A stretch of DNA of 64,000 nucleotides. Origin: Myxococcaceae bacterium. Lineage in GTDB: Bacteria; Myxococcota; Myxococcia; Myxococcales; Myxococcaceae. The stretch spans positions 1-64,000 of the forward strand of contig JAXLYB010000002.1 of the NCBI GenBank assembly GCA_046351675.1, written 5' to 3'. Below are positions 49,971 through 60,302 of the stretch, piece after piece (position 1 is the stretch's first letter; every line of letters begins with the position of its first letter). The translations under genes were made by a program, and so were the position numbers. Under the pieces are notes generated by a model. The model was not told the DNA's origin. It made no database searches and worked only from the letters and a program-made list of their open reading frames with translations.

Positions 49971-50149
49971 GGTCGAGGTCGCTGGGCAGAGAAGTTGTTC
50001 TCCCAGAGCATTTTCTCTACCCGGTGACCCGAACGACGACTGAGTGAACGAGTCACGGCCCGCAGCGAGGGGCACCTGCGCTGTTCGGCACGGCCTCAGG
50101 CCACCAGCACGCCCGCCACCCTCGAGGCTGATCAGCGTCCCGCTCGACC

Positions 50150-50887
50150 TCAGAAGCCCACCCCGAGCTGCGCCGAGCCACCCAGACGCACCGGCCCCAG
50201 CGCCGTCGCCTCCACCGCGAACGCCAGGAACGCGTGCTTCACCTGCACCCGCACCCCGACGCGCCCACCGAGCGAGAACGCCGTGCCCTTGTACGTCGCC
50301 GGCTGCCCATCGATGACCAACTGAGTCGTGAGGTGCTCGAAGTCACCGAGCACGTCGAGGAACGGCGTCACGTGCCGAAACGGAAACTCGTACCCGATGC
50401 CGGTGCGCAGGTCCCACATCGACACCGAGCGCACCAGCACGTCGTGGCTCAGCCCGTCTGACAACACGACCGACTGCGCCGAGCTCGACGGCCTGAAGTT
50501 GATGAACGGAAACCGCACGCCAGTCGTGACGCGAATGCCGTTGGTCACCAGCCGCGACTCCAGCGTCGCGCCCGCGAGCACCGACGAGCGAAACGGAGGC
50601 CCGAGGAACGGCTCGGTCACGCTGCCGGCCACCGCGGGGTTCGAGTCACTGGGCGTCAGCTCGAGGCCGCGCACGGTCTCGTCGGTCCACTGCCCGAGGT
50701 AGCCGAACGACAGCTCGCCGTGCGTGCGCTGCCACGTCTTCAGCGCGGGGTCGTCCTCGACCGGCGGCGCGGGCCGGCGCGCGAGACAGTCGGAGACACA
50801 GTCACTCACCTCGCCCGCCTCCTCGAAGAGCGAGGGCTGGGGCGCAGCGGCGACCGACAACGAGAGCGCGAGGAGGAGTGGGGTCAT
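50150..50887 (-). CDS. Secreted beta-rich (outer-membrane beta-barrel-like) protein
   Basis: Signal peptide MTPLLLALSLSVAAAP. Alternating beta pattern. C-terminal aromatic residue (F). Confidence 0.55.
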   Translation of the reverse strand: MTPLLLALSLSVAAAPQPSLFEEAGEVSDCVSDCLARRPAPPVEDDPALKTWQRTHGELSFGYLGQWTDETVRGLELTPSDSNPAVAGSVTEPFLGPPFRSSVLAGATLESRLVTNGIRVTTGVRFPFINFRPSSSAQSVVLSDGLSHDVLVRSVSMWDLRTGIGYEFPFRHVTPFLDVLGDFEHLTTQLVIDGQPATYKGTAFSLGGRVGVRVQVKHAFLAFAVEATALGPVRLGGSAQLGVGF

Positions 50888-50996
50888 GTCCCGCTCCCAC
50901 AGCAACCCGCTCGCCCACGCAGATCCGCGCCACCACGGGGCGTGACACGGGCATGACGTGCGCAACCTGCGCAACCGGGGCAGCCCCGGCAGGCGC

Positions 50997-51008
50997 GTGC
51001 AATTGCAC
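50997..51008. promoter_or_regulatory. Perfect 12-bp palindrome GTGCAATTGCAC in a divergent promoter region
   Basis: It sits between divergent genes 50150..50887 (-) and 51035..51937 (+). A nearby direct repeat (tgcgcaacc x2) and the hairpin ccggggcagccccgg at about 50975-50989 are also present. Confidence 0.3.
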
Positions 51009-51034
51009 CGCAACGTGCGCCCGCGCGGACTACG

Positions 51035-51937
51035 GTGCAGCCCATGCCCGTTCTGGTTTCTGGAGCCCGCCCCCCGCTCGGGGTTGTGGCACTGCTGGCC
51101 TCGACGCTGCTCGCCTCGAGCACACTCGCGCAGCCCGCCCCGTCGACCCCGAAGACCGAGAAGCCGCGCCTGGTGGTGACCGACTTCGCCGCGCAGAAGG
51201 CGCTGCCCGAAGAGGCGCAGGCCATCGGCGACGCGGTGGTGACCTACCTCGCCGCGCGCGGCCTGTTCGAGGTCGTCGGCCCGCGCGACATCCAGACCAT
51301 TCTCGGCGTGGAACGTCAGCGCCAGCTGCTCGGCGCGTGCGCGAGCGACACGCTGGCGTGCAGCGCCGACGTGGTGAAGCTCATCTCGGCGCGCTTCGTG
51401 TTGTCGGGCCAGCTCGCGAAGGTCGGCAGCGCGTACCAGCTGACGCTGCAGCTCATCGACACCGAGAAGTCGCAGACCGCCAGCCGCAGCAGCAAGCTCG
51501 CCGGCACCCTCGAAGACCTCCGCGCGCTGGTGCCGTACGCCGCGTCGGAAGCGACCGGCTCTCCGTTGCCTCCGCCGCCCTCGCGCGCGCTGCCCATCAC
51601 GCTGCTCGCGGTCGGCGGCGTCACGCTGCTCTCCGGCGGCGGGGTCGAGGTGCTCGCCCTCTCGAAGGAAAGCCAGCTCAACGACGAGCTCTGCCCGGGC
51701 GGCCCGCAGCCTGACGGGCGCTGCAGCGGCATCAACCTGCGGCCCCGCACCTTCTACGTGCAGCAGCAGCAGCAGCTCACCGTGCAGAAGATCGTCGGCA
51801 TCGGCGTGATGGCCGCGGGCGCGCTGCTGGTGGGCCTGGGGGTGTGGCTCATGCCGCCCGAAGACGCGCGGGCGAGGATTTCCCTGCGCCTGGTGCCCAC
51901 GCCCACGGGCCTCGCGCTCGCCGGAGGGTTCTTCTGA
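51035..51937 (+). CDS. Secreted, C-terminally membrane-anchored protein. Paralog of 57065..57841.
   Basis: Signal peptide, conserved core and a C-terminal TM segment, ending ...GLALAGGFF. Clear paralogy to 57065..57841 (ERQRQLLGACASDTLAC vs ERQKELLGCKDEAC). Confidence 0.6.
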   Translation: MQPMPVLVSGARPPLGVVALLASTLLASSTLAQPAPSTPKTEKPRLVVTDFAAQKALPEEAQAIGDAVVTYLAARGLFEVVGPRDIQTILGVERQRQLLGACASDTLACSADVVKLISARFVLSGQLAKVGSAYQLTLQLIDTEKSQTASRSSKLAGTLEDLRALVPYAASEATGSPLPPPPSRALPITLLAVGGVTLLSGGGVEVLALSKESQLNDELCPGGPQPDGRCSGINLRPRTFYVQQQQQLTVQKIVGIGVMAAGALLVGLGVWLMPPEDARARISLRLVPTPTGLALAGGFF

Positions 51938-54309
51938 TGATCCGCCGCGGACTGTGGTTGGTGCTGGGCCTCGTCGTCGCGCTCGGCGCGTGCACCGGGG
52001 TGTTCTTCGACAAGGGCAACGCCTTCCCCTGTGACTTCTCGAAGGGGCCGGGCGCGCGCGACGCGGTGTGCGTGAGCGGTGACGTGTGCGGCACCGACAA
52101 CCTGTGCCACCCGTTCATCTACGAAGGCCCGCGCTTCGAGGGCCCGGCGACGATTCCCACCTTCGAAGACAGTGAGTTCGTGCCGCTGCACCCGGTGACG
52201 CTCGATCAGCCCATCATCGCGGTGGTGCGCAAGGCCGAGAAGGACGGCGCCTTCGTGCAGCTCGCCGACGGCTCCTGGTTCGAGGTGAGCGGGCTCGACC
52301 GGGTCACGCGCTCGCCCGCGTGGACGGTGCTCGACGACGGCTTCGCCGCCACCCTCGGGGCCGGCCCGTCAGCGAGCGACGTCATCATCGGGCTCGACGC
52401 GAACGGGCAGATCATCGTGCAGAAGCGCGTCGGACCGACGCTGATGATCAACACCATCCCCACGGGGATCACCGCGCGGCACATTCGCGGTTCGAACGAC
52501 GGCCCGCCGCGGCTCCCGGTCGAGGAACCCGTGGTGCTGCGGGTCAACACTATGAACGAGCTGTCGGAGCTCACCATCGGCGTCGACGGCGGGATGCCGA
52601 CGGTGGCCGAAGTGTCGCTTGGCAGCGGCTTCATGGGCACTGCGCTCGACGTCGCGATGCTGGCCACCGGGCGGACCTTCACGCCCATCGTCACCACCAC
52701 CAACGGGCTCTTCATCGGCGACAACGACGGTGGCTTCGACCTCGTCACCACCCGCGCCAGCGTGGGCCGCGCGAAGTTCCGCCTCAACGACGCCAACACG
52801 CTGCTGGTCGAGCAGGTCGGCGACGACGACATCGCCGCGTGGTTCGTCGACGTCGACCCCACCAAGAGCTACCACCTGCTCTCGCCCGCGTGGCCGCAGT
52901 GCCAGCCGTGTCGAGCCGACGAGAGCATCGAGCTCGCCACGCCCGTGCCGCCGCGCCTGGGCTTCGCGGTCGAGGTGCTGTGCCGCTCGAAGGAAACCGG
53001 CGACCGCACGCTCCACCGCGTCGAAGGTGCAGTGGGCGCGACCGGTCGCCAGCCGTGCCTGTCGACCGAGCTCGACTTCCCGCTCGACGAGGCGCAGCTC
53101 GCGACGGCTCCCGGGCCCGACGGAGGTCCGCGGCTGGTTGGCGCAGCGATCCTCGAAGGGGTCGCCGTGGGCGGGAAGAACGGCGAGCTGTGGCGCGGCG
53201 AGACGCTCTCCTCGGTGCTCCCGGTCGCGCTCGAGCGCGTGCCGACCCACGTCTTCGAGTTGCCCATTCTCAACGACGCGCCGCCGCTGCTGGGCGTGCT
53301 CACCGACCGCTACCCGGCGGCGGCCACCGACGACTTCAAGGCGGGGCTCCCCATGGGCTTCCGCCGCATCAACCTCTCCGAGGGCTTCGGGGCCGCGCAG
53401 GACGTGCGCATCATCGCGCCGGTGCGCGGCGCACCGGGCTGGGTGATCGAGAACAACGGCCTGCTCACCCGCGCCTCGGTCGACGACACCACCGGTGACC
53501 CGCTCATCGAGTTCGGCCCGCACCTCACGACCGCCGCGGGTGACGACATTCGCTCGAGCATCGGCGGCGAGGCGTACTCGCAAGACGGCGGCCTGCGCGC
53601 GCTCTTCGTCGCCGCCGACGACGGCCTCTACTTCGTGAAGGACCCCGAGGGCCCGTCGCTGGGCGACACCTTCGACCTCACGCCCGAGCTCATTCCCGAG
53701 CCGTCGGTGCCGATTCGCAGCCTCGCGCTCGAGCGCACGCCGCTGGGCACTGATGGCCTCACGCGCGCCCGCGGGTACCTCGTCACCTCGCGCAACGTCT
53801 ACGAGTGGAAGTTCGGCGGCACGCCCCCGCGGTGGACCTCGCGGCCCCTGAACATCGCCGGCGGCGAGCCGCTCGAGGTGTGGTTCGACCGCGAGAAGAG
53901 CGCGCTGGGACGCGTGGGCTTCAGCGATGGCCGCATCTTCACGCTGCCCGGCGGCTACCAGCTCGCGGAATCGATTCCCGGCGACGACACCGAGACCGTC
54001 TCGCTCATCGACTACGAGAACTTCGGCGGCTGGCCCGTCGCGCTCGCCACCACTGGCCTCTACGTCGCGCGGTGGGACACCGACGCCAGGGGGAAGCTGC
54101 AGAACCACTTCCCCGACGGCGGCCTCAACCGCCCGATGGAATGGCACGAGATCGTGCTGCCCGACGGCGGCCGCCCGTGGATGAAGGGCGACCAGACCGA
54201 AGGGAAGCTCTTCGTGCAGGACGTGCCGCTCGACGGCGGCACGCACCAGTTCAAGCTCTTCGTCTTCACGCCCAACCTGGTGATGCAGGTCGGCGCGTAC
54301 GAGCGCTGA
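51937..54309 (+). CDS. Large hypothetical lipoprotein
   Basis: Lipobox LVVALGAC. 790 aa. Start overlaps the upstream stop (TGATG). Confidence 0.65.
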   Translation: MIRRGLWLVLGLVVALGACTGVFFDKGNAFPCDFSKGPGARDAVCVSGDVCGTDNLCHPFIYEGPRFEGPATIPTFEDSEFVPLHPVTLDQPIIAVVRKAEKDGAFVQLADGSWFEVSGLDRVTRSPAWTVLDDGFAATLGAGPSASDVIIGLDANGQIIVQKRVGPTLMINTIPTGITARHIRGSNDGPPRLPVEEPVVLRVNTMNELSELTIGVDGGMPTVAEVSLGSGFMGTALDVAMLATGRTFTPIVTTTNGLFIGDNDGGFDLVTTRASVGRAKFRLNDANTLLVEQVGDDDIAAWFVDVDPTKSYHLLSPAWPQCQPCRADESIELATPVPPRLGFAVEVLCRSKETGDRTLHRVEGAVGATGRQPCLSTELDFPLDEAQLATAPGPDGGPRLVGAAILEGVAVGGKNGELWRGETLSSVLPVALERVPTHVFELPILNDAPPLLGVLTDRYPAAATDDFKAGLPMGFRRINLSEGFGAAQDVRIIAPVRGAPGWVIENNGLLTRASVDDTTGDPLIEFGPHLTTAAGDDIRSSIGGEAYSQDGGLRALFVAADDGLYFVKDPEGPSLGDTFDLTPELIPEPSVPIRSLALERTPLGTDGLTRARGYLVTSRNVYEWKFGGTPPRWTSRPLNIAGGEPLEVWFDREKSALGRVGFSDGRIFTLPGGYQLAESIPGDDTETVSLIDYENFGGWPVALATTGLYVARWDTDARGKLQNHFPDGGLNRPMEWHEIVLPDGGRPWMKGDQTEGKLFVQDVPLDGGTHQFKLFVFTPNLVMQVGAYER

Positions 54310-54322
54310 TCAGCCTCACTGA

Positions 54323-55969
54323 TCAGCGCCTGGGCACCACCACGCCACCCGCTGGCGTGTTCGCCTTCGCGAAGTCGACCACCACGTCGAACCACGCGCG
54401 CACCTCGGTGCCGGGCAGGTCGGCGCCCGCGAGCGGGTCGAGGTGCGAGAAGCCGGGGTTCGACACCGCGCGAAAGCCCTCGGGCTCGGACCGCGTGCGC
54501 CCCTCGTTCGGCCGCCCCGCACCGACCGGCGCCATCAGGTCGCGCAGCCCGTCGTAGGCGGTGACGTCGCCCTTCAGAATGCCCGCCGCCTCGGCCAGCA
54601 CCGGCACGGCCAGCTCGCGGCCGCGCGTCGCGCGCACGCCGTAGCCCGTCACCGGCCAGTCGCCGGGCGCGAGCGTGAGCGTCGAGGCCAGCGCGGAGTC
54701 GAGCGCCAACCGCATCGGGAAGTACCACTCACCAAAGTCTGCGCCCGGGCGTGTCCACGTGAGCGCGAACTCCGAGAGCGACGTCGGCTCGGGCGGAGAG
54801 AGCTGGTCGAACTCCTTCCACGTGAAGGTCTGGGTGCTCGGCGCCGGCTTCTGCACCGGGTCGCTGCCGAACAGCGGCGTCGCGGGCACGAGCGGCCCGT
54901 CGGTCGCGCCCGCGTTGACCGCGGCGATGGAGACGGGGCACGTCGTGGCGTCGAACGCCAACCCGAACGCGGCGCGGTTGGTCATGCGCGGCAGGTTGCT
55001 CGAGAGGAAGAGCAGCTCGAGCGCCTCGCGCCGCGGGCGGTCGACCTCCACCGCGTCGGGGTTCCACGTCGCGCGCAGCGCGGTGCCCACGCTGACGGGG
55101 AAGAGCTTCACGTCGAGCAGCGGGAACGCGAAGAACCGCGACGTCGCGCGCACCTGCGCGAGCTGGGGCTTCGCTCCGCCGAACATGCCGCCCGACAGGC
55201 CGGTGGTCTCGTACTCGTCGCGCGTCAGCGTGAAGGGTTGGCCGGGCGAGCCAGTGACGCCGTCGATCAGCACCAGCCCCGCGAGCTCGTCATCGCCGCG
55301 GGCACCGTCGAAGTCCCACGCGGCGAAGGCCGAGACGATGGCCGCTCCGAGCGAGTGGCCGGCGAGCACCACGCGCGCGCGACGCTGGTCGGCCGGCACC
55401 AGCGCGAGCACCGCGCGCAGATCATCGATGGTCGAGACGAGGCCCCATTCCGACTCGAAGGCCAGCTCGTCCTGGGTGTGAAAGCCGGGGAACGTCGTGC
55501 CGTCGGCCAGCGGCGTGCGGTCGACGTAGTAGCTGCCGATGAGGCCGGCGTTCTGCGCCGCCAGCGCCGCGTCGATGCCCGCGCGGTCTTCGAGCCCGTT
55601 GGAGCGCCGGTCGATGGCCCACGCCTCCAGCGCGGCCTCCGCGCTCGAGCGGCGCACGATGGCCCGCGCGAGGGCGTCGAACGAGCCCGCACCGCCGAGG
55701 AAGCCCGGCATCAGCACCACGATGGCGCGCGCGGGCCGCGGGGCAGCGGTGCCGGTGTCGACGCGGTAGCGAACCACGGTCACCGCGTCGAGCTCGTCGG
55801 GCGTCGCGGCGCCGGTGAGCGGGTTGGGCGGCGGCTTCGGGGTGCTCACCCGCATCAATTCCCGGCGAATGGCGACCCCACCCTGCGGCGCCTCGATGAC
55901 CGCGGGGTCAGGCGCCGGCGGAGTGCACCCGCACGCGACGACCAGCAGCGCCCCGAGGACTCTCGTCAT
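54323..55969 (-). CDS. Alpha/beta hydrolase (lipase/esterase-like) lipoprotein
   Basis: Lipobox LLVVACGC. GHSLGAAIV nucleophile elbow. Stop/start overlap (ATGA) with the upstream gene. The antisense ORF 54443..56509 is rejected. Confidence 0.7.
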   Translation of the reverse strand: MTRVLGALLVVACGCTPPAPDPAVIEAPQGGVAIRRELMRVSTPKPPPNPLTGAATPDELDAVTVVRYRVDTGTAAPRPARAIVVLMPGFLGGAGSFDALARAIVRRSSAEAALEAWAIDRRSNGLEDRAGIDAALAAQNAGLIGSYYVDRTPLADGTTFPGFHTQDELAFESEWGLVSTIDDLRAVLALVPADQRRARVVLAGHSLGAAIVSAFAAWDFDGARGDDELAGLVLIDGVTGSPGQPFTLTRDEYETTGLSGGMFGGAKPQLAQVRATSRFFAFPLLDVKLFPVSVGTALRATWNPDAVEVDRPRREALELLFLSSNLPRMTNRAAFGLAFDATTCPVSIAAVNAGATDGPLVPATPLFGSDPVQKPAPSTQTFTWKEFDQLSPPEPTSLSEFALTWTRPGADFGEWYFPMRLALDSALASTLTLAPGDWPVTGYGVRATRGRELAVPVLAEAAGILKGDVTAYDGLRDLMAPVGAGRPNEGRTRSEPEGFRAVSNPGFSHLDPLAGADLPGTEVRAWFDVVVDFAKANTPAGGVVVPRR

Positions 55970-56979
55970 AGGCAGGTGGTCTGGCACATCTCGGAGCAAC
56001 ACTCCTCGGCCGCCCCGCACGTGACGCCACCCGCCTTGCACATCGGCACGTTCACGTTCACCGAGTTCAGGAAGAGCGCCCCCGAGAGCTGCACGGTCAC
56101 CGCGGTCGCGCTCATCGGCGGGTCCACCCCGAGGAAGTACGAGCTGTCGCCCGCGCGGAAACCGCTCGCGCCGCAGTTCGACAAGCCCATGCCGCCCTGG
56201 CGCAGCGTCGTGGTCGGGTTGGTGTTCGCCGCCGCCGGAGCGGGCATGCCGAGGCCGGTCGCGCTCACCTCGAGGAAATTGCACTGGCCGGGCTTCAAGA
56301 AGGTGCCCGCGTCGAGGAAGAGCGTCGCCTGCGCGGTGAAGGTCTGGACGCGGGTGCTGATGGTGAAGCCCTGGTTCGTCACGCCCGCGTACCAGCGGAA
56401 GGTGCCGAAGCGGCTCGTCTTCACCGCGGACGCGTCGCTCGCGGTCGGAGGCTGGTTGCAGCTCAAGTTGCCGAAGTATGCGAAGCCCGGGTCGGGCACC
56501 GCGACGTAGTCCATCGGGAGGTTGCAGAACACGTCGCCGCCGCCCGGCGGGTCGGGCTTGAGTGCCTGCAACGAGAGCTGGATGCAGTCGTTCACCTCGC
56601 CGCTGGTGAAGCCGCCGATGTTGAAGCGGTTGAACAAGCAGCCGGGCATGACGCCGCCGTCGCCCTGGCCAGCTCCTGCGAGGGGATCAGGCCCCGCGTC
56701 TGGTGCGCCGCCACCCGTCGCCATGCCGCCGCCCGTCGCCGTGCCGCCGCCCGTCGCCGTGCCGCCGCCCATCGCCGTGCCGCCGCCCATCGCCGTGCCG
56801 CCGCCCATCGCGGTGCCGCCACCCATCGCGGTGCCGCCACCCGTCGCGGTGCCGCCGCCCGCACCGCCGCCGACCTCGGTGCCGCCATCGCAGCGGCCGG
56901 TCTCGGCGCAGTAGTCGCGAAACGCGCCTGAGAAGTCGCAACCCGCGAGCACCAGCGCGAAGAGGAGCGCGCGCTTCAC
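55966..56979 (-). CDS. Lipoprotein with (GGGTAM)n hexapeptide repeats and Cys-rich C-terminus
   Basis: GTG start with GGAGGTG Shine-Dalgarno sequence. Lipobox LVLAGC. About 9 copies of an 18-bp repeat. Middle gene of a three-gene minus-strand operon. Confidence 0.65.
   Translation of the reverse strand: MKRALLFALVLAGCDFSGAFRDYCAETGRCDGGTEVGGGAGGGTATGGGTAMGGGTAMGGGTAMGGGTAMGGGTATGGGTATGGGMATGGGAPDAGPDPLAGAGQGDGGVMPGCLFNRFNIGGFTSGEVNDCIQLSLQALKPDPPGGGDVFCNLPMDYVAVPDPGFAYFGNLSCNQPPTASDASAVKTSRFGTFRWYAGVTNQGFTISTRVQTFTAQATLFLDAGTFLKPGQCNFLEVSATGLGMPAPAAANTNPTTTLRQGGMGLSNCGASGFRAGDSSYFLGVDPPMSATAVTVQLSGALFLNSVNVNVPMCKAGGVTCGAAEECCSEMCQTTCL
56703..56870 (-). repeat. 18-bp coding tandem repeat encoding GGGTA(M/T), about 9 copies
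   Basis: Plus-strand units gccgtgccgccgcccatc / gcggtgccgccacccgtc. Confidence 0.8.
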
Positions 56980-57063
56980 CACGCACCTCCCAGCGCGAGG
57001 CCGCGCGGCACAGGCGGAGATGGCGCCAACACAAACCGCGCCGACGCGAAAGACGAGGCGCTG
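56976..57063 (-). pseudogene. Duplicated 3'-end fragment of the paralog-B gene (encodes ...APSPPVPRGLALGGAW*)
   Basis: About 85 bp almost identical to the 3' end of gene 57065..57841 (caccacgcacctcccagcgcgag... present twice). The remnant's TGA overlaps the GTG start of the downstream lipoprotein gene. Confidence 0.5.
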
Positions 57064-57064
57064 A

Positions 57065-57841
57065 TCACCACGCACCTCCCAGCGCGAGCCCACCCGGCAC
57101 GGGCACCAGCCACGCGCTCGGCGCCTCGAGCGGAGACGGCGCCAACGCAAACCACAGCGCCCCGACCGCGAGCGCGACGGCGCCACCCGCGAGGAAGCCG
57201 ACACCGAGCCACTGGTCCCGCGGGCCGGTCTGCGCGGCGAGCATCGCGTCGGCGTACGAGAGCGCGTCGGGGCCGCGCCGCTGCAGCGAGGCGAGCGTGA
57301 GGTTGGCGCTGATGACGAAGCCGACGCCCACGCCCGCGAGGCCCACCCCGAGGCCCATGGGAATCAACGGTGCGAGCGAGCGGCTCGGGGGCGCCTGGCC
57401 GGCGATGGCCCACGACCACTCATCGAGCACGAGGAAGACCTGGCGTTCGGTCGACACGGTGCGCGACTTCGCCAGCCGCGCCTTGCCGTTCTGCGCGACG
57501 AGCACCTTCACCACCACCTGGTAGCCGTCGTCGAGCTTGGCGACCTCTCCGGTGATGAGCTCCTTCACGCCGATGGCGCCGGCCAGCTCGAGCAAGCACG
57601 CCTCGTCCTTGCAGCCCAGCAGCTCCTTCTGGCGCTCGAAGCCCATCACGGCCTCGAGGTCCTTCGGGGTGGCGACGCGCACGCCGCGCTCGAGCAGGCG
57701 CGTGGCGAGGTGCTCGCTGAAGAGCTGCGCCTTCTCGGCGGGCTGGCCGACCACGTTGAAGCGGCTCATGCCGAGCTTGAACTCGTCGCTCCCCGGCGCG
57801 GCCGCGATCAGGAACAGGAGGCTGGCAGCGAGGGCCGACAC
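57065..57841 (-). CDS. Secreted, C-terminally membrane-anchored protein. Paralog of 51035..51937.
   Basis: Signal peptide MSALAASLLFLIAAAP. Conserved core and C-terminal TM plus ...GLALGGAW tail. Confidence 0.6.
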   Translation of the reverse strand: MSALAASLLFLIAAAPGSDEFKLGMSRFNVVGQPAEKAQLFSEHLATRLLERGVRVATPKDLEAVMGFERQKELLGCKDEACLLELAGAIGVKELITGEVAKLDDGYQVVVKVLVAQNGKARLAKSRTVSTERQVFLVLDEWSWAIAGQAPPSRSLAPLIPMGLGVGLAGVGVGFVISANLTLASLQRRGPDALSYADAMLAAQTGPRDQWLGVGFLAGGAVALAVGALWFALAPSPLEAPSAWLVPVPGGLALGGAW

Positions 57842-57896
57842 GGGCGGGCTCTATACTCCTCGGCGCGCGCGCGGCGAGCGGAGTAAACGAGGGCGC

Positions 57897-59012
57897 GTGC
57901 GGCTGCTGTCCCTCACCTGCAAGCACTTCAGGAACCTCGAGCCGCTGACGCTCGAGCCGTCGGCGCGCGCGACCATCGCGGTGGGCCAGAACGGCCAGGG
58001 CAAGACCAACCTCCTCGAGGCGCTCTACTTCCTGGCGACGCTCAAGCCGCTGCGCGCCAACCGCCTCCAGGAACTGGTGCGCTTCGGCGAGCCCTCGGCG
58101 ACGGTGACCGGCCGCTTCCTGCTCTCGGGCGCCGAGCGGGAAATCAGCGTCGAGGTGATTCCCGGCGGGCGCACCGCGTTCGTCGACGGCAAGCGCGCGG
58201 CGTCGCTCGACGCGTACTTCGGCGGCGTGTCGGTGGTGGCCTTCACGCCCGATGACCTCTCGGTGGTGAAGGGCGGCCCCGACGGGCGCCGCGCGTTCCT
58301 CGACCGCAGCGTGTTCAACCTCGTGCCGGCGTACCTCGACGAGAACCGCGAGTACGGCCGCGCGCTCAAGAGCCGCAACCGCCTGCTGAAGGACCGCGCG
58401 CCGATGAGCCACCTGCAGGCGTGGGACGCGACGCTCGCGCGGCTCGGCGCCCGGCTGTGGGTGCGGCGGCGCGCGCTGCTGACGGCGCTGGGGGCTCGGG
58501 CGCAGGCGGCGTTCCAGCGCATCGGGCGCAGCCCGCTCGAGGCGAGCTTCGGCTACGAGCCGTCGCACCTGGGCGATGGGCTGCAGTTCAACATGGCCTC
58601 GGAACCGGAGCTCGCCGAGCGCATGCTCGCGCGCCTCGACGAGCGGCTGTCGCGCGACGTGGAGCGCGGCTTCACTTCCGTCGGGCCCCACGCCGACGAC
58701 CTCGACATCACGCTGGGTGAGAAGTCAGCGCGCGCGTACGCGAGCCAGGGCCAGAGCCGCGCGCTGGTGCTGGCGTGGAAGGTGGCGGAGATCGAGAACC
58801 TCGCGGCGCACAACGGCTTCCTGCCGCTCTTGCTGCTCGATGACGTGTCGAGCGAGCTCGACCCCGAGCGCAACGCGTTCTTGATGAACTATCTCGCCGA
58901 GTCGGGCGCGCAGACGCTGCTCACGACGACTGACGCCGAGCTGGTGCGCGCGGCGGCGGGCGGTGAGACGAAGTGGCTGCAGGTGAAGGGCGGCATCGTC
59001 ACCGCAGGCTGA
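57897..59012 (+). CDS. recF: DNA replication and repair protein RecF
   Basis: GTG start. Walker A (GQNGQGKTNLLEALYFL), signature motif and Walker B (LLLLDDVSSELD). Typical RecF length. Confidence 0.9.
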   Translation: MRLLSLTCKHFRNLEPLTLEPSARATIAVGQNGQGKTNLLEALYFLATLKPLRANRLQELVRFGEPSATVTGRFLLSGAEREISVEVIPGGRTAFVDGKRAASLDAYFGGVSVVAFTPDDLSVVKGGPDGRRAFLDRSVFNLVPAYLDENREYGRALKSRNRLLKDRAPMSHLQAWDATLARLGARLWVRRRALLTALGARAQAAFQRIGRSPLEASFGYEPSHLGDGLQFNMASEPELAERMLARLDERLSRDVERGFTSVGPHADDLDITLGEKSARAYASQGQSRALVLAWKVAEIENLAAHNGFLPLLLLDDVSSELDPERNAFLMNYLAESGAQTLLTTTDAELVRAAAGGETKWLQVKGGIVTAG

Positions 59013-59014
59013 GC

Positions 59015-59054
59015 CCCCTCTCCCCCCGAGGGGGAGAGGGTTGGGGTGAGGGGA
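59015..59054. repeat. REP-like palindromic element
   Basis: ccctctccccccgagggggagagggttggggtgagggga. It follows directly after the recF stop. Confidence 0.7.
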
Positions 59055-59132
59055 AGATCCAGCACGGCCGGCGGAGCGATGAATGCAGGTGGCAGTCGCT
59101 GATCAGCGTGGTCGCCAAGCCCGCTCCCTGCC

Positions 59133-59168
59133 CCCTCTCCCCCTGGGGAGAGGGTTGGGGTGAGGGGA
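59133..59168. repeat. REP-like palindromic element (same orientation as the one at 59015)
   Basis: ccctctccccctggggagagggttggggtgagggga. Confidence 0.7.
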
Positions 59169-59271
59169 AAGCCCAGCACGGCGCGCGCGGAGACCTCGGG
59201 ACCAACGATGTGCTGCTGACCGTTCGCCGCCGGCCTCACCTGTTACGCATGTTTCCGGCTGTACACGCGTC

Positions 59272-59307
59272 TCCCCTCACCCCGACCCTCTCCCCGCGGG
59301 GAGAGGG
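59272..59307. repeat. REP-like palindromic element (inverted). It overlaps the 3' end of gene 59277..60302.
   Basis: tcccctcaccccgaccctctccccgcggggagaggg. Confidence 0.7.
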
Positions 59308-60302
59308 GGTGCGTCTCGCCATGCTGCGAGGTCCTGCTCGGCCAGTTGCTGCCCGACCTCGCGCAACCGCTCCTCCGGCAGGTGCGCGAGCACGGTGCAC
59401 AGATCCTCTGCGCTGACGGGCTCGCGCGCACCGAGCGCGAGACACACGCGATCAATCTCACCCGAGGGAATGGTCAACGCGGCCTGCTCTCCCTCGATGC
59501 TGTAGTGGCCGCCCTGCCGTCGCCACGCGCCGACCGGCGTGCGCGACAGCCCCCGCAGCGTCGGGCTCTGCAGCAGCCGCACCAGCCGCACCACGTCATC
59601 CCCCTCGACCTCCACGTCGCCGAAGCGCGCGCTCGCGAGGGTGCTGCGCCGCCCCGAGCCGAGTGTGACCTCCGACCAGGGCCACCGGCGGCCGCGCGCG
59701 AAGAAGCCATCGGCATGCAGCGACCACGGCGAGCGCCCGCGGGCGCTGACCAGCGTGGCGACGATGATCAACAGCCCCACCACCCACGAGCTCGGGTGCC
59801 TCCCGGCGTCGTCGGAGAACGCGAGCATCGCCAGCACGTACGCCCCGATGGCGAGCCCGCCAAAGAGCGCCGAGACCTCTGCCGCGACGCGGCTCTGGCG
59901 AAATCGCGTCTCCGCGGGCCCGGGCGGAGTTCGGCTCTCGACGATGTCCTCCGCAGCACGGACCAGCGAGACCTCGAATCGCAACGTGCCGGAGACGCGA
60001 CGGGCCAACGCGGCGCGCACCGCCTCTCGTTCATGGCGCACCAGCGCACTCAACTCGCCCCCGCTTCCATCAGGCAACGCGTCGACCGCCGCGAGCGCCC
60101 GCTCGAGCTCCGGCCACGTGCGCGCCAGCTCGCGCAAGGTGCCCGGGTCGTCGAGCGACTGCACCTCTCGCTCCAGCGCCGCGCGCGCCGAGGCGAGCAG
60201 CGCCACCCCGTCTTCGAGCAACTCGACCTTGCCCTCGAGGCGCGTGCGGTCATCGGGCGAGATGGCGGCTGATTCCGCGCGGCGCAGGTGCTCGTGGCTC
60301 AT
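59277..60302 (-). CDS. Hypothetical membrane protein
   Basis: Internal Met start (MSHEHL). Coiled-coil N-terminus and two TM helices. The C-terminal roughly 13 aa are encoded by a REP element. Start overlaps the upstream stop (ATGA). Confidence 0.45.
   Translation of the reverse strand: MSHEHLRRAESAAISPDDRTRLEGKVELLEDGVALLASARAALEREVQSLDDPGTLRELARTWPELERALAAVDALPDGSGGELSALVRHEREAVRAALARRVSGTLRFEVSLVRAAEDIVESRTPPGPAETRFRQSRVAAEVSALFGGLAIGAYVLAMLAFSDDAGRHPSSWVVGLLIIVATLVSARGRSPWSLHADGFFARGRRWPWSEVTLGSGRRSTLASARFGDVEVEGDDVVRLVRLLQSPTLRGLSRTPVGAWRRQGGHYSIEGEQAALTIPSGEIDRVCLALGAREPVSAEDLCTVLAHLPEERLREVGQQLAEQDLAAWRDAPPLPAGRGSG

Follow-up and report, generated by a model that had tools for sequence, protein, structure and literature searches.

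A putative two-gene envelope module of Myxococcota: a predicted membrane scaffold gene that overlaps the start of its lipoprotein gene

Introduction

Why does a gene for a small secreted protein stand directly before a lipoprotein gene, and why does this happen twice in the same locus? The question is raised by a stretch of 64,000 nucleotides (nt) from a Myxococcaceae bacterium (assembly GCA_046351675.1, contig JAXLYB010000002.1, positions 1 to 64,000, hereafter the window; GC content ~71%). The window carries two related genes, A and B. Gene A is followed by the lipoprotein gene A2, and gene B, in inverted orientation, by the lipoprotein gene B2 and the putative hydrolase gene B3 (Table 1). 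An earlier note, made from the letters of this DNA, had described A and B as partners of cognate lipoproteins and had proposed that a short tandem duplication at the end of B created the coupled start of B2.

We suggest that A/A2 and B/B2 both represent one conserved envelope module of Myxococcota, made up of two genes and so far undescribed, in which gene 1 encodes a membrane scaffold that forms a stoichiometric complex with the cognate lipoprotein encoded by gene 2. We give this reading a probability of about 0.6.

Results and Discussion

The proposed scaffold gene overlaps a lipoprotein gene across Myxococcota

A pattern scan with one genome per species detected 69 loci, all in metagenome-assembled genomes (MAGs) of uncultured Myxococcota and often several per genome. 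Combined with the B-type loci, these gave 80 family genes, for which distinct junctions and distinct downstream genes were counted. The stop of the scaffold gene overlaps the start of the next gene at 72 of the 77 junctions, by 4 nt in 62 ([A/G/T]TGA) and by 1 nt in 10 (TGATG). The stop codon is TGA in all 72, the next gene starting with ATG, GTG or TTG, and a G-rich motif stands at -11 to -7 of the junctions (GGAGG in 19, GGAG in 13, GGGG in 34). A lipobox was detected on 72 of the 78 downstream genes (69 by regular expression and three by eye), with a median length of 794 amino acids (aa).

In the window, the TGA of A (51935-51937) overlaps the ATG of A2 (51937-51939) as TGATG, with GGAGGG 9-14 nt upstream. 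A/A2 thereby combines the overlap with a Shine-Dalgarno (SD) element inside gene 1, and B/B2 shows this combination only through a bridging open reading frame (ORF) of 30 codons. The earlier note had let both paralogs overlap the next lipoprotein gene, which is correct for A/A2 and incorrect for B/B2: B stops at 57067-57065 and B2 starts at 56979.

Scaffold and lipoprotein also diverge together. Their distances are correlated over 60 modules (Mantel r=0.86, p=0.001), the scaffold paralog classes match the lipoprotein paralog classes, and at least 14 genomes, as counted from contig names, hold 2-5 modules each. The partnership with lipoproteins that the earlier note had proposed is thus upheld by overlaps, lipoboxes and correlated distances, and the genome-wide co-occurrence with lipoprotein genes was found to be consistent. 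The C-terminal residue of the scaffold in 122 representatives of 240-350 aa is mostly P (59), F (27), W (18) or R (8). This pattern fits what CC[AG]TGA, TGGTGA and CG[AG]TGA overlaps impose, suggesting from the protein ends that coupling is probably general in the scaffold family.

Some genomes hold two family modules side by side (L043:5201-6868, L029, L031, L015/L016/L020/L072), in tandem in some of them and as divergent A-type and B-type modules in others. In L043 one scaffold gene is directly followed by a second scaffold gene.

Operon economy alone, in which independent envelope proteins are co-transcribed and form no cognate complex, could also produce such junctions. Stop/start overlaps are common in high-GC genomes, and two pairs that are not conserved partners overlap too: A2/recF in L006, and B2/hydrolase in the window, where the TGA of B2 overlaps the ATG of the hydrolase gene as ATGA, as the earlier note had seen. 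Yet the same junction type and partner class recur across paralogs down to 36% identity (72/77 junctions), whole modules duplicate and diverge jointly, and the hydrolase and recF adjacencies are not kept in the same way. We regard operon economy as a quite improbable explanation of the pairing.

Predicted fold and topology of the scaffold protein

The paralogy of A and B was confirmed by BLASTP (25% identity, E=2e-13) and by tblastn, in which B residues 14-258 align with A and no third copy appears in the window. The conserved core that the earlier note had written as ERQxxLLGxxxxxxC is real as well. Among 17 aligned sequences it reads G-x-ERQ-x2-LLG-x-C-x6-C, with G91, R94, Q95, G100, C102 and C109 invariant and E93 nearly so.

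A search with a profile of A-type and B-type members matched 12,688 cluster representatives at E<=0.001, of which 4,513 reach E<=1e-10 and 134 reach E<=1e-30. The top 150 are mostly of 250-300 aa, with two hydrophobic segments and a tail like aLVPtxxGxalvGvFP. In their sources the family members are labelled 'hypothetical protein' or 'TolB-like protein', the latter by JGI pipelines. Gene B belongs to a rare subtype, with only 3 matches in a search of 5.8 billion proteins. No papers describing the scaffold family were found in the literature. Two leads were rejected: the matches for a SitA/DUF2380 toxin link concern pfam09533, another family than PF11684, and 'TolB-like' in Myxococcus xanthus papers denotes TwnR/MXAN_2422, which has a TolB-like propeller and is unrelated to the scaffold. 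One ortholog (P0081) carries a precomputed PF11684 match.

The Pfam comparison of the core that the earlier note had proposed gave matches, all of them below threshold. Pfam and NCBIfam pointed only to LpoB (13.8 bits, cutoff 22.3), DUF3280 (13.8, cutoff 30.1), TolB_N (13.5, cutoff 22.4) and FlgO (11.7, cutoff 22.6). Profiles of the scaffold and of A2 found no sequence relatives in the PDB. An AlphaFold2 model of the scaffold built on 14 orthologs (mean predicted local distance difference test score, pLDDT, 78) has a domain at residues 45-175 (pLDDT ~90), followed by long helices at 182-219 and 238-272. The domain is predicted to be an alpha/beta sandwich superimposable on solved TolB-N/PelC/CsgG/LpoB members. 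The earlier note had read one C-terminal transmembrane helix; there are two hydrophobic helices, and this holds family-wide. Neither the model nor Pfam gives a beta-barrel. A, B and the aligned relatives have signal-peptide-like N-termini without a lipobox Cys, the signal peptides of A and B being predicted from hydrophobic N-termini.

Both helices are uniformly hydrophobic (mean Kyte-Doolittle 1.9 and 2.1 over 19 residues), and the loop between them counts 4.5 Lys plus Arg, versus 1.4 and 1.8 in the flanks. Together these values favour an inner-membrane hairpin with a cytoplasmic loop.

The scaffold could instead be an outer-membrane oligomer with a periplasmic ring made of the TolB-N/PelC-fold domains and an alpha-helical barrel made of the hairpins, as in TraT or Wza, and serve as a dedicated surface-lipoprotein translocon that exports or displays its cognate lipoprotein. 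Three points keep this model alive: the Cys pair in the loop, the outer-membrane, ring-forming relatives of the fold, and TraT. The two loop Cys are invariant in the A subtype, and a disulfide there needs an extracytoplasmic location; an aromatic residue is also conserved at the end of the tail. On the other side, helices of such hydrophobicity should, by the logic of the Sec pathway, stop transfer in the inner membrane. The Cys pair is limited to one subtype, and the aromatic residue is not C-terminal, since the overlapping start codon usually forces a further P, W or R behind it. TraT, the precedent for helical barrels as outer-membrane anchors, is a lipidated outer-membrane lipoprotein with an alpha-helical barrel of amphipathic helices (PMC11733297). 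The scaffold helices are fully hydrophobic, not amphipathic as in the Wza and TraT barrels, and no lipobox provides a lipid anchor. We consider the outer-membrane model rather unlikely.

Partner lipoproteins and strain variation

The lipoprotein status of A2, B2, B3 and the downstream genes in other genomes was predicted from the lipobox [LVI][ASTVI][GAS]C; the translations carry LGAC in A2, LAGC in B2 and VVAC in B3. A2 has no Pfam, PADLOC or PDB sequence match, and is modelled as a double WD40-like beta-propeller. In an alignment of 24 A2 orthologs the Cys-rich stalk (~aa 20-90) and the C-terminal half are conserved, and the part at ~90-310 is poorly conserved. A2 evolves faster than A, with 44-49% versus 73-77% identity in the same relatives. 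B-type partners are shorter and combine a C-DF...C..G.C motif with a Gly-rich linker.

In other genomes the B-type partners have Gly/Ser/Thr-rich linkers after the lipobox. The partners of other paralog classes (L044:6837-9929, L057, L047, L031) are lipoproteins of 880-1050 aa with up to ~10 tandem Cys-rich repeats (DCxxGWxCG...ECHDP) in the N-terminal part after the lipobox; they have no Pfam match, yet their C-terminal region is common with A2.

The same locus is available from a near-identical strain (L074; 99.9% identity over 3.2 kb, 97.9% over 11.5 kb). The two sequences differ at 257 positions over the 11.5 kb, ~220 of them within 52000-53250, inside A2. The rate of synonymous substitution (dS) is 0.35-0.57 inside this block and 0.011 outside it, and the ratio of nonsynonymous to synonymous rates (dN/dS) is ~0.5 for A2 residues 111-300 and 0.12 for 301-440. 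The comparison indicates that recombination brought in a divergent allele of this block, which is centred on the predicted N-terminal propeller, and that the differences are not due to local hypermutation. It points to A2 as a strain-variable envelope protein.

Exchange of the N-terminal propeller between strains is expected of a surface-exposed protein, and in this respect the variation favours the outer-membrane model. A bolder version of that model would make the module an unrecognised display system for polymorphic lipoproteins, in which the scaffold, oligomerised through its PelC/CsgG-like domain and helical hairpin, holds or surface-exports the double-propeller lipoprotein and the N-terminal propeller is exchanged between strains. 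We hold this version to be unlikely. If it were true, the lipoprotein would act as a determinant of kin, prey or phage recognition, of which the genomes of uncultured Myxococcota have several paralogous copies.

Proposed mechanism of the module

The strict overlap, the co-diversification of the two genes and a fold that is used elsewhere for partner binding or ring formation together argue for an obligate complex of ~1:1 stoichiometry. Gene 1 would encode a small secreted protein with a signal peptide, a periplasmic domain of the TolB-N/PelC/CsgG/LpoB fold, a Pro-rich hinge, a two-helix hairpin and a tail of ~27 residues. The hairpin would most likely sit in the inner membrane, with the loop of ~42 residues in the cytoplasm. 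Gene 2 would encode the cognate lipoprotein, a double beta-propeller in the A type and a smaller Gly-linker protein in the B type. The last codons of gene 1 (..V-G-G/V-F/W-W/P) may double as the SD-like element and the start of gene 2 (xTGA), and both proteins are probably made at ~1:1 by termination-reinitiation. The scaffold would then position the lipoprotein within the stoichiometric complex, with the variable N-terminal propeller as the probable ligand-facing part.

Several points weigh against this proposal. Five junctions have no overlap, and four loci (L048, L049, L070, L071) have no adjacent lipoprotein gene. Every Pfam match of the scaffold is below threshold (13.8 bits versus 22-30), and the beta-hairpin of the C-terminal tail is modelled at low confidence (pLDDT 56-66). 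The charge bias of the loop is weak, the loop also having 5.3 Asp plus Glu. The A subtype conserves exactly two Cys in this loop, and the pair looks like a disulfide, a poor fit to a cytoplasmic location. The 30 open codons of the bridging ORF at B/B2 are unremarkable at 71% GC. All functional assignments are drawn from gene order and predicted folds.

The scaffold family has many members and lacks annotation, no Pfam model scoring above threshold. It nevertheless follows a strict genetic rule, its genes almost always directly preceding a lipoprotein gene and overlapping the start of that gene; such strictness usually marks obligate complexes, which makes the family a good target for myxobacterial envelope biology. 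The C-terminal residues of the scaffold appear to be shaped at once by protein function, by the SD-like motif and by the overlapping start codon, a clean natural case of dual coding.

The duplicated junction between B and B2

The end of B is present in two copies, which are identical at 56 of 62 aligned nt; the copy adjoining B2 has a single in-frame gap of 27 nt (pairwise alignment). The repeat analysis gave two corresponding families, D6 (47 nt, 85% identity, spacing 89) and D8 (45 nt, 76% identity, spacing 116), and the two GTGA junctions lie 89 nt apart. The tandem duplication reported in the earlier note is therefore real, but it is not a clean 85 bp: ~62 nt can be aligned, at 89 nt from junction to junction. 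An extension of the duplicated unit into the first 30 nt of B2 is not claimed (14/30 identical, p ~0.06).

Only the duplicated remnant abuts B2. It is read in another frame than B, as the ORF of 30 codons that runs from GTG (57068-57066) to TGA (56978-56976). The GTG of this ORF overlaps the TGA of B, its TGA overlaps the GTG of B2, and GGAGG stands 7-11 nt before the start of B2.

The duplication has been taken to supply the SD element and to create the coupled start of B2, and GGAGGTG and GTGA do stand in copy 2 directly before B2. The synteny comparison argues otherwise. In L001, a relative at 58% identity, the junction is single-copy, and the tail of the B ortholog (..LVPTPRGLALVG..) leads straight into GTG-AAG-CGC of a B2 ortholog with 48% identity and the same GTG-KR start. 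Together with the SD and overlap found across the family, this single-copy GTG junction indicates that the junction predates the duplication and that the duplication did not create the coupled start. On present comparisons the SD-plus-overlap junction is the ancestral, family-wide state, and the duplication has left a scar at one junction without being the source of the coupling; it appears to have moved the stop of B 89 nt upstream of B2.

At L001:8700-8801 the frame called as the B ortholog lacks a stop codon at the junction and continues for 50 nt into the B2 ortholog, which may reflect either a genuine, longer overlap or a sequencing error in the MAG.

An assembly artefact, the other explanation under which the duplicated segment would not be a scar, was named in the earlier note as what would undo its own reading. 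In two Logan assemblies and one ENA assembly the sequence from the tail of B across its stop into copy 2 matches the window exactly, all three ending before the second junction. With 6 mismatches in 62 positions and a 27-nt indel between them, the copies are also unlike an assembler duplication. We consider it highly unlikely that the segment is either an artefact or the innovation that coupled B2. The contig of L074 ends within the 18-nt repeat of B2, before the junction, and two scans of JGI metagenomes, for a single-copy allele and for a second duplicated allele, gave no matches.

The scar could have arisen in two ways. Either the gene-1/gene-2 junction was duplicated in tandem in this lineage and a 27-nt deletion followed, or a foreign B2 allele was imported and brought along the final ~60 nt of its own scaffold gene. 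The remnant reads 'PRGLAL' as in L001, versus 'PGGLAL' in the resident copy, which hints at foreign import and is not decisive. The bridging ORF, beginning and ending in the same GTGA signal, could relay ribosomes from B to B2, or B2 could initiate independently on its own GGAGG. We regard the duplication as a minor curiosity, and as a natural experiment on the ability of a short bridging ORF to preserve coupling.

The B block as an insertion between A2 and recF

A2 and recF are separated in the window by the B-B2-B3 block (54323-57841, ~3.5 kb), which is inverted. At 16 loci that carry A2-type orthologs, recF comes next after A2, its tblastn match starting 23-49 nt beyond the end of the A2 match. 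In five loci that were inspected, the stop of A2 and the start of recF nearly abut or overlap, with TGATG as the overlap in L006. A2 and recF adjoin in 16 or more relatives (among L005-L043), and this gene order indicates that the whole B block, ~3.5 kb, was inserted into a locus that ancestrally read A-A2-recF. The B module of L001 is found elsewhere and lacks the hydrolase. Cassette shuffling, as the earlier note had called it, is thus supported in another sense, as an insertion of the whole B-B2-hydrolase block.

B3 has a Hydrolase_4 match in Pfam just below threshold (E=9.9e-6, 25.5 bits, cutoff 27) and a GHSLG (G-x-S-x-G) elbow in its translation. No hydrolase ORF follows the B2 ortholog of L001, and on this comparison B3 is not a conserved member of the module.

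Comparison with known systems

The module appears to be an undescribed architectural variant built from known folds, with a putative function. The scaffold scores below every family threshold of the TolB-N, PelC, CsgG, LpoB and FlgO domains, and none of these families has its two-helix hairpin, its conserved tail or its obligatory, coupled lipoprotein gene. PelC, CsgG and LpoB are lipid-anchored, whereas the scaffold has no lipobox Cys.

The likeness to TolB is that a TolB-N-like domain and a beta-propeller are both predicted and that a lipoprotein is involved, as the lipoprotein Pal is the partner of TolB. In contrast to TolB, the domain and the propeller are on two separate, putatively translationally coupled polypeptides, and A (300 aa) has only helices and a short hairpin after the N-terminal domain. 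The propeller protein is here the lipoprotein itself, with two WD40-like propellers in the model. No Tol-Pal genes were seen beside the modules, where no systematic search for them was made.

Partner-plus-cargo gene pairs are known from Slam with TbpB/fHbp, from PorP/SprF with SprB-type cargo of the type 9 secretion system, and from TpsB with TpsA. As in these pairs, a membrane partner gene stands beside each large variable envelope protein, a genome contains several paralogous pairs, and evolution is faster in the cargo than in the partner (A 73-77% versus A2 44-49% identity). The Slam, TpsB and PorP/SprF partners are outer-membrane beta-barrels; the scaffold has no predicted barrel, and surface exposure of its lipoprotein is putative. 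The domains PA14 and MYXO-CTERM of the polymorphic myxobacterial receptor TraA were not found by Pfam or NCBIfam.

Layout of the locus and neighbouring features

Table 1. Features of the A/A2 and B/B2 locus, in coordinates of the window; fold and lipoprotein assignments are predicted.
Feature	Position	Strand	Remarks
Gene A, scaffold protein	51035..51937	+	NCBI locus tag U0228_06400 (NCBI start 9 nt further downstream, 297 aa); putative signal peptide, predicted TolB-N/PelC/CsgG/LpoB-fold domain, Pro-rich hinge GSPLPPPPSR, two hydrophobic helices, tail LVPTPTGLALAGGFF
Gene A2, 790-aa lipoprotein	51937..54309	+	Lipobox LGAC; ATG overlaps TGA of A; conserved Cys-rich N-terminal stalk (~aa 20-90), variable N-terminal beta-propeller, conserved C-terminal beta-propeller
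Divergent recombined block within A2	52219..53185	+	~aa 95-415, centred on N-terminal propeller; strain comparison with L074
Palindrome GCGCTGATCAG-N8-CTGATCAGCGC	54301..54330	none	Contains convergent stops of A2 and B3; left edge of inserted B block
Gene B3, 548-aa putative alpha/beta hydrolase of lipoprotein type	54323..55969	-	GHSLG nucleophile elbow; ATG overlaps TGA of B2
Gene B2, 337-aa lipoprotein	55966..56979	-	Lipobox LAGC; GTG start 56979-56977; CDFSGAFRDYCAETGRC motif, Gly-rich (GGTAMG)n linker, Cys-rich C-terminus
18-nt tandem repeat, 9 copies	56689..56904	-	Gly-rich linker of B2; repeat families D1 and D2
Duplicated junction, copy 2	56976..57068	-	30-codon bridging ORF encoding VISASSFASARFVLAPSPPVPRGLALGGAW; sequence, ORF frame, alignments
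Duplicated segment, copy 1	57065..57165	-	Authentic 3' end of gene B; exceeds copy 2 by 27 nt; repeats D6 and D8, pairwise alignment
Gene B, second scaffold paralog, 258 aa	57065..57841	-	NCBI locus tag U0228_06420; architecture as in A
recF	57897..59012	+	GTG start; right edge of inserted B block

PADLOC detected no anti-phage defence matches for A, A2, B, B2 and B3, and no Rfam families were found at 50000-58500. A scan for sigma-70-type promoters, which is uninformative for myxobacteria, found none, and terminator-like sites were no more frequent than expected by chance.

Upstream of A and divergent from it lies a gene for a protein of 245 aa (50150-50887, reverse strand) with a signal peptide and a C-terminal ..LGVGF. 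Its weak OMP_b-brl match (E=0.094) is that of a possible small outer-membrane barrel. The gene is not a conserved neighbour, being found only in the near-identical strain L074.

Downstream of recF (59014-59309) are three copies of a GC-rich palindromic element resembling repetitive extragenic palindromic sequences (CCCTCTCCCC..GGGGAGAGGGTTGGGGTGAGGGG). Two copies have the same orientation and lie at a distance of 114 nt; the third is inverted (38-nt arms, 92% complementary).

The palindromic motif CTGATCAGCGC has 19 matches in the window (<=1 mismatch), against 3.5 expected. It yields a TGA stop on either strand and often occurs as close pairs on opposite strands. Its sites include the convergent stops of A2 and B3 (54301-54330), the stop of B (57058-57068) and 16 others.

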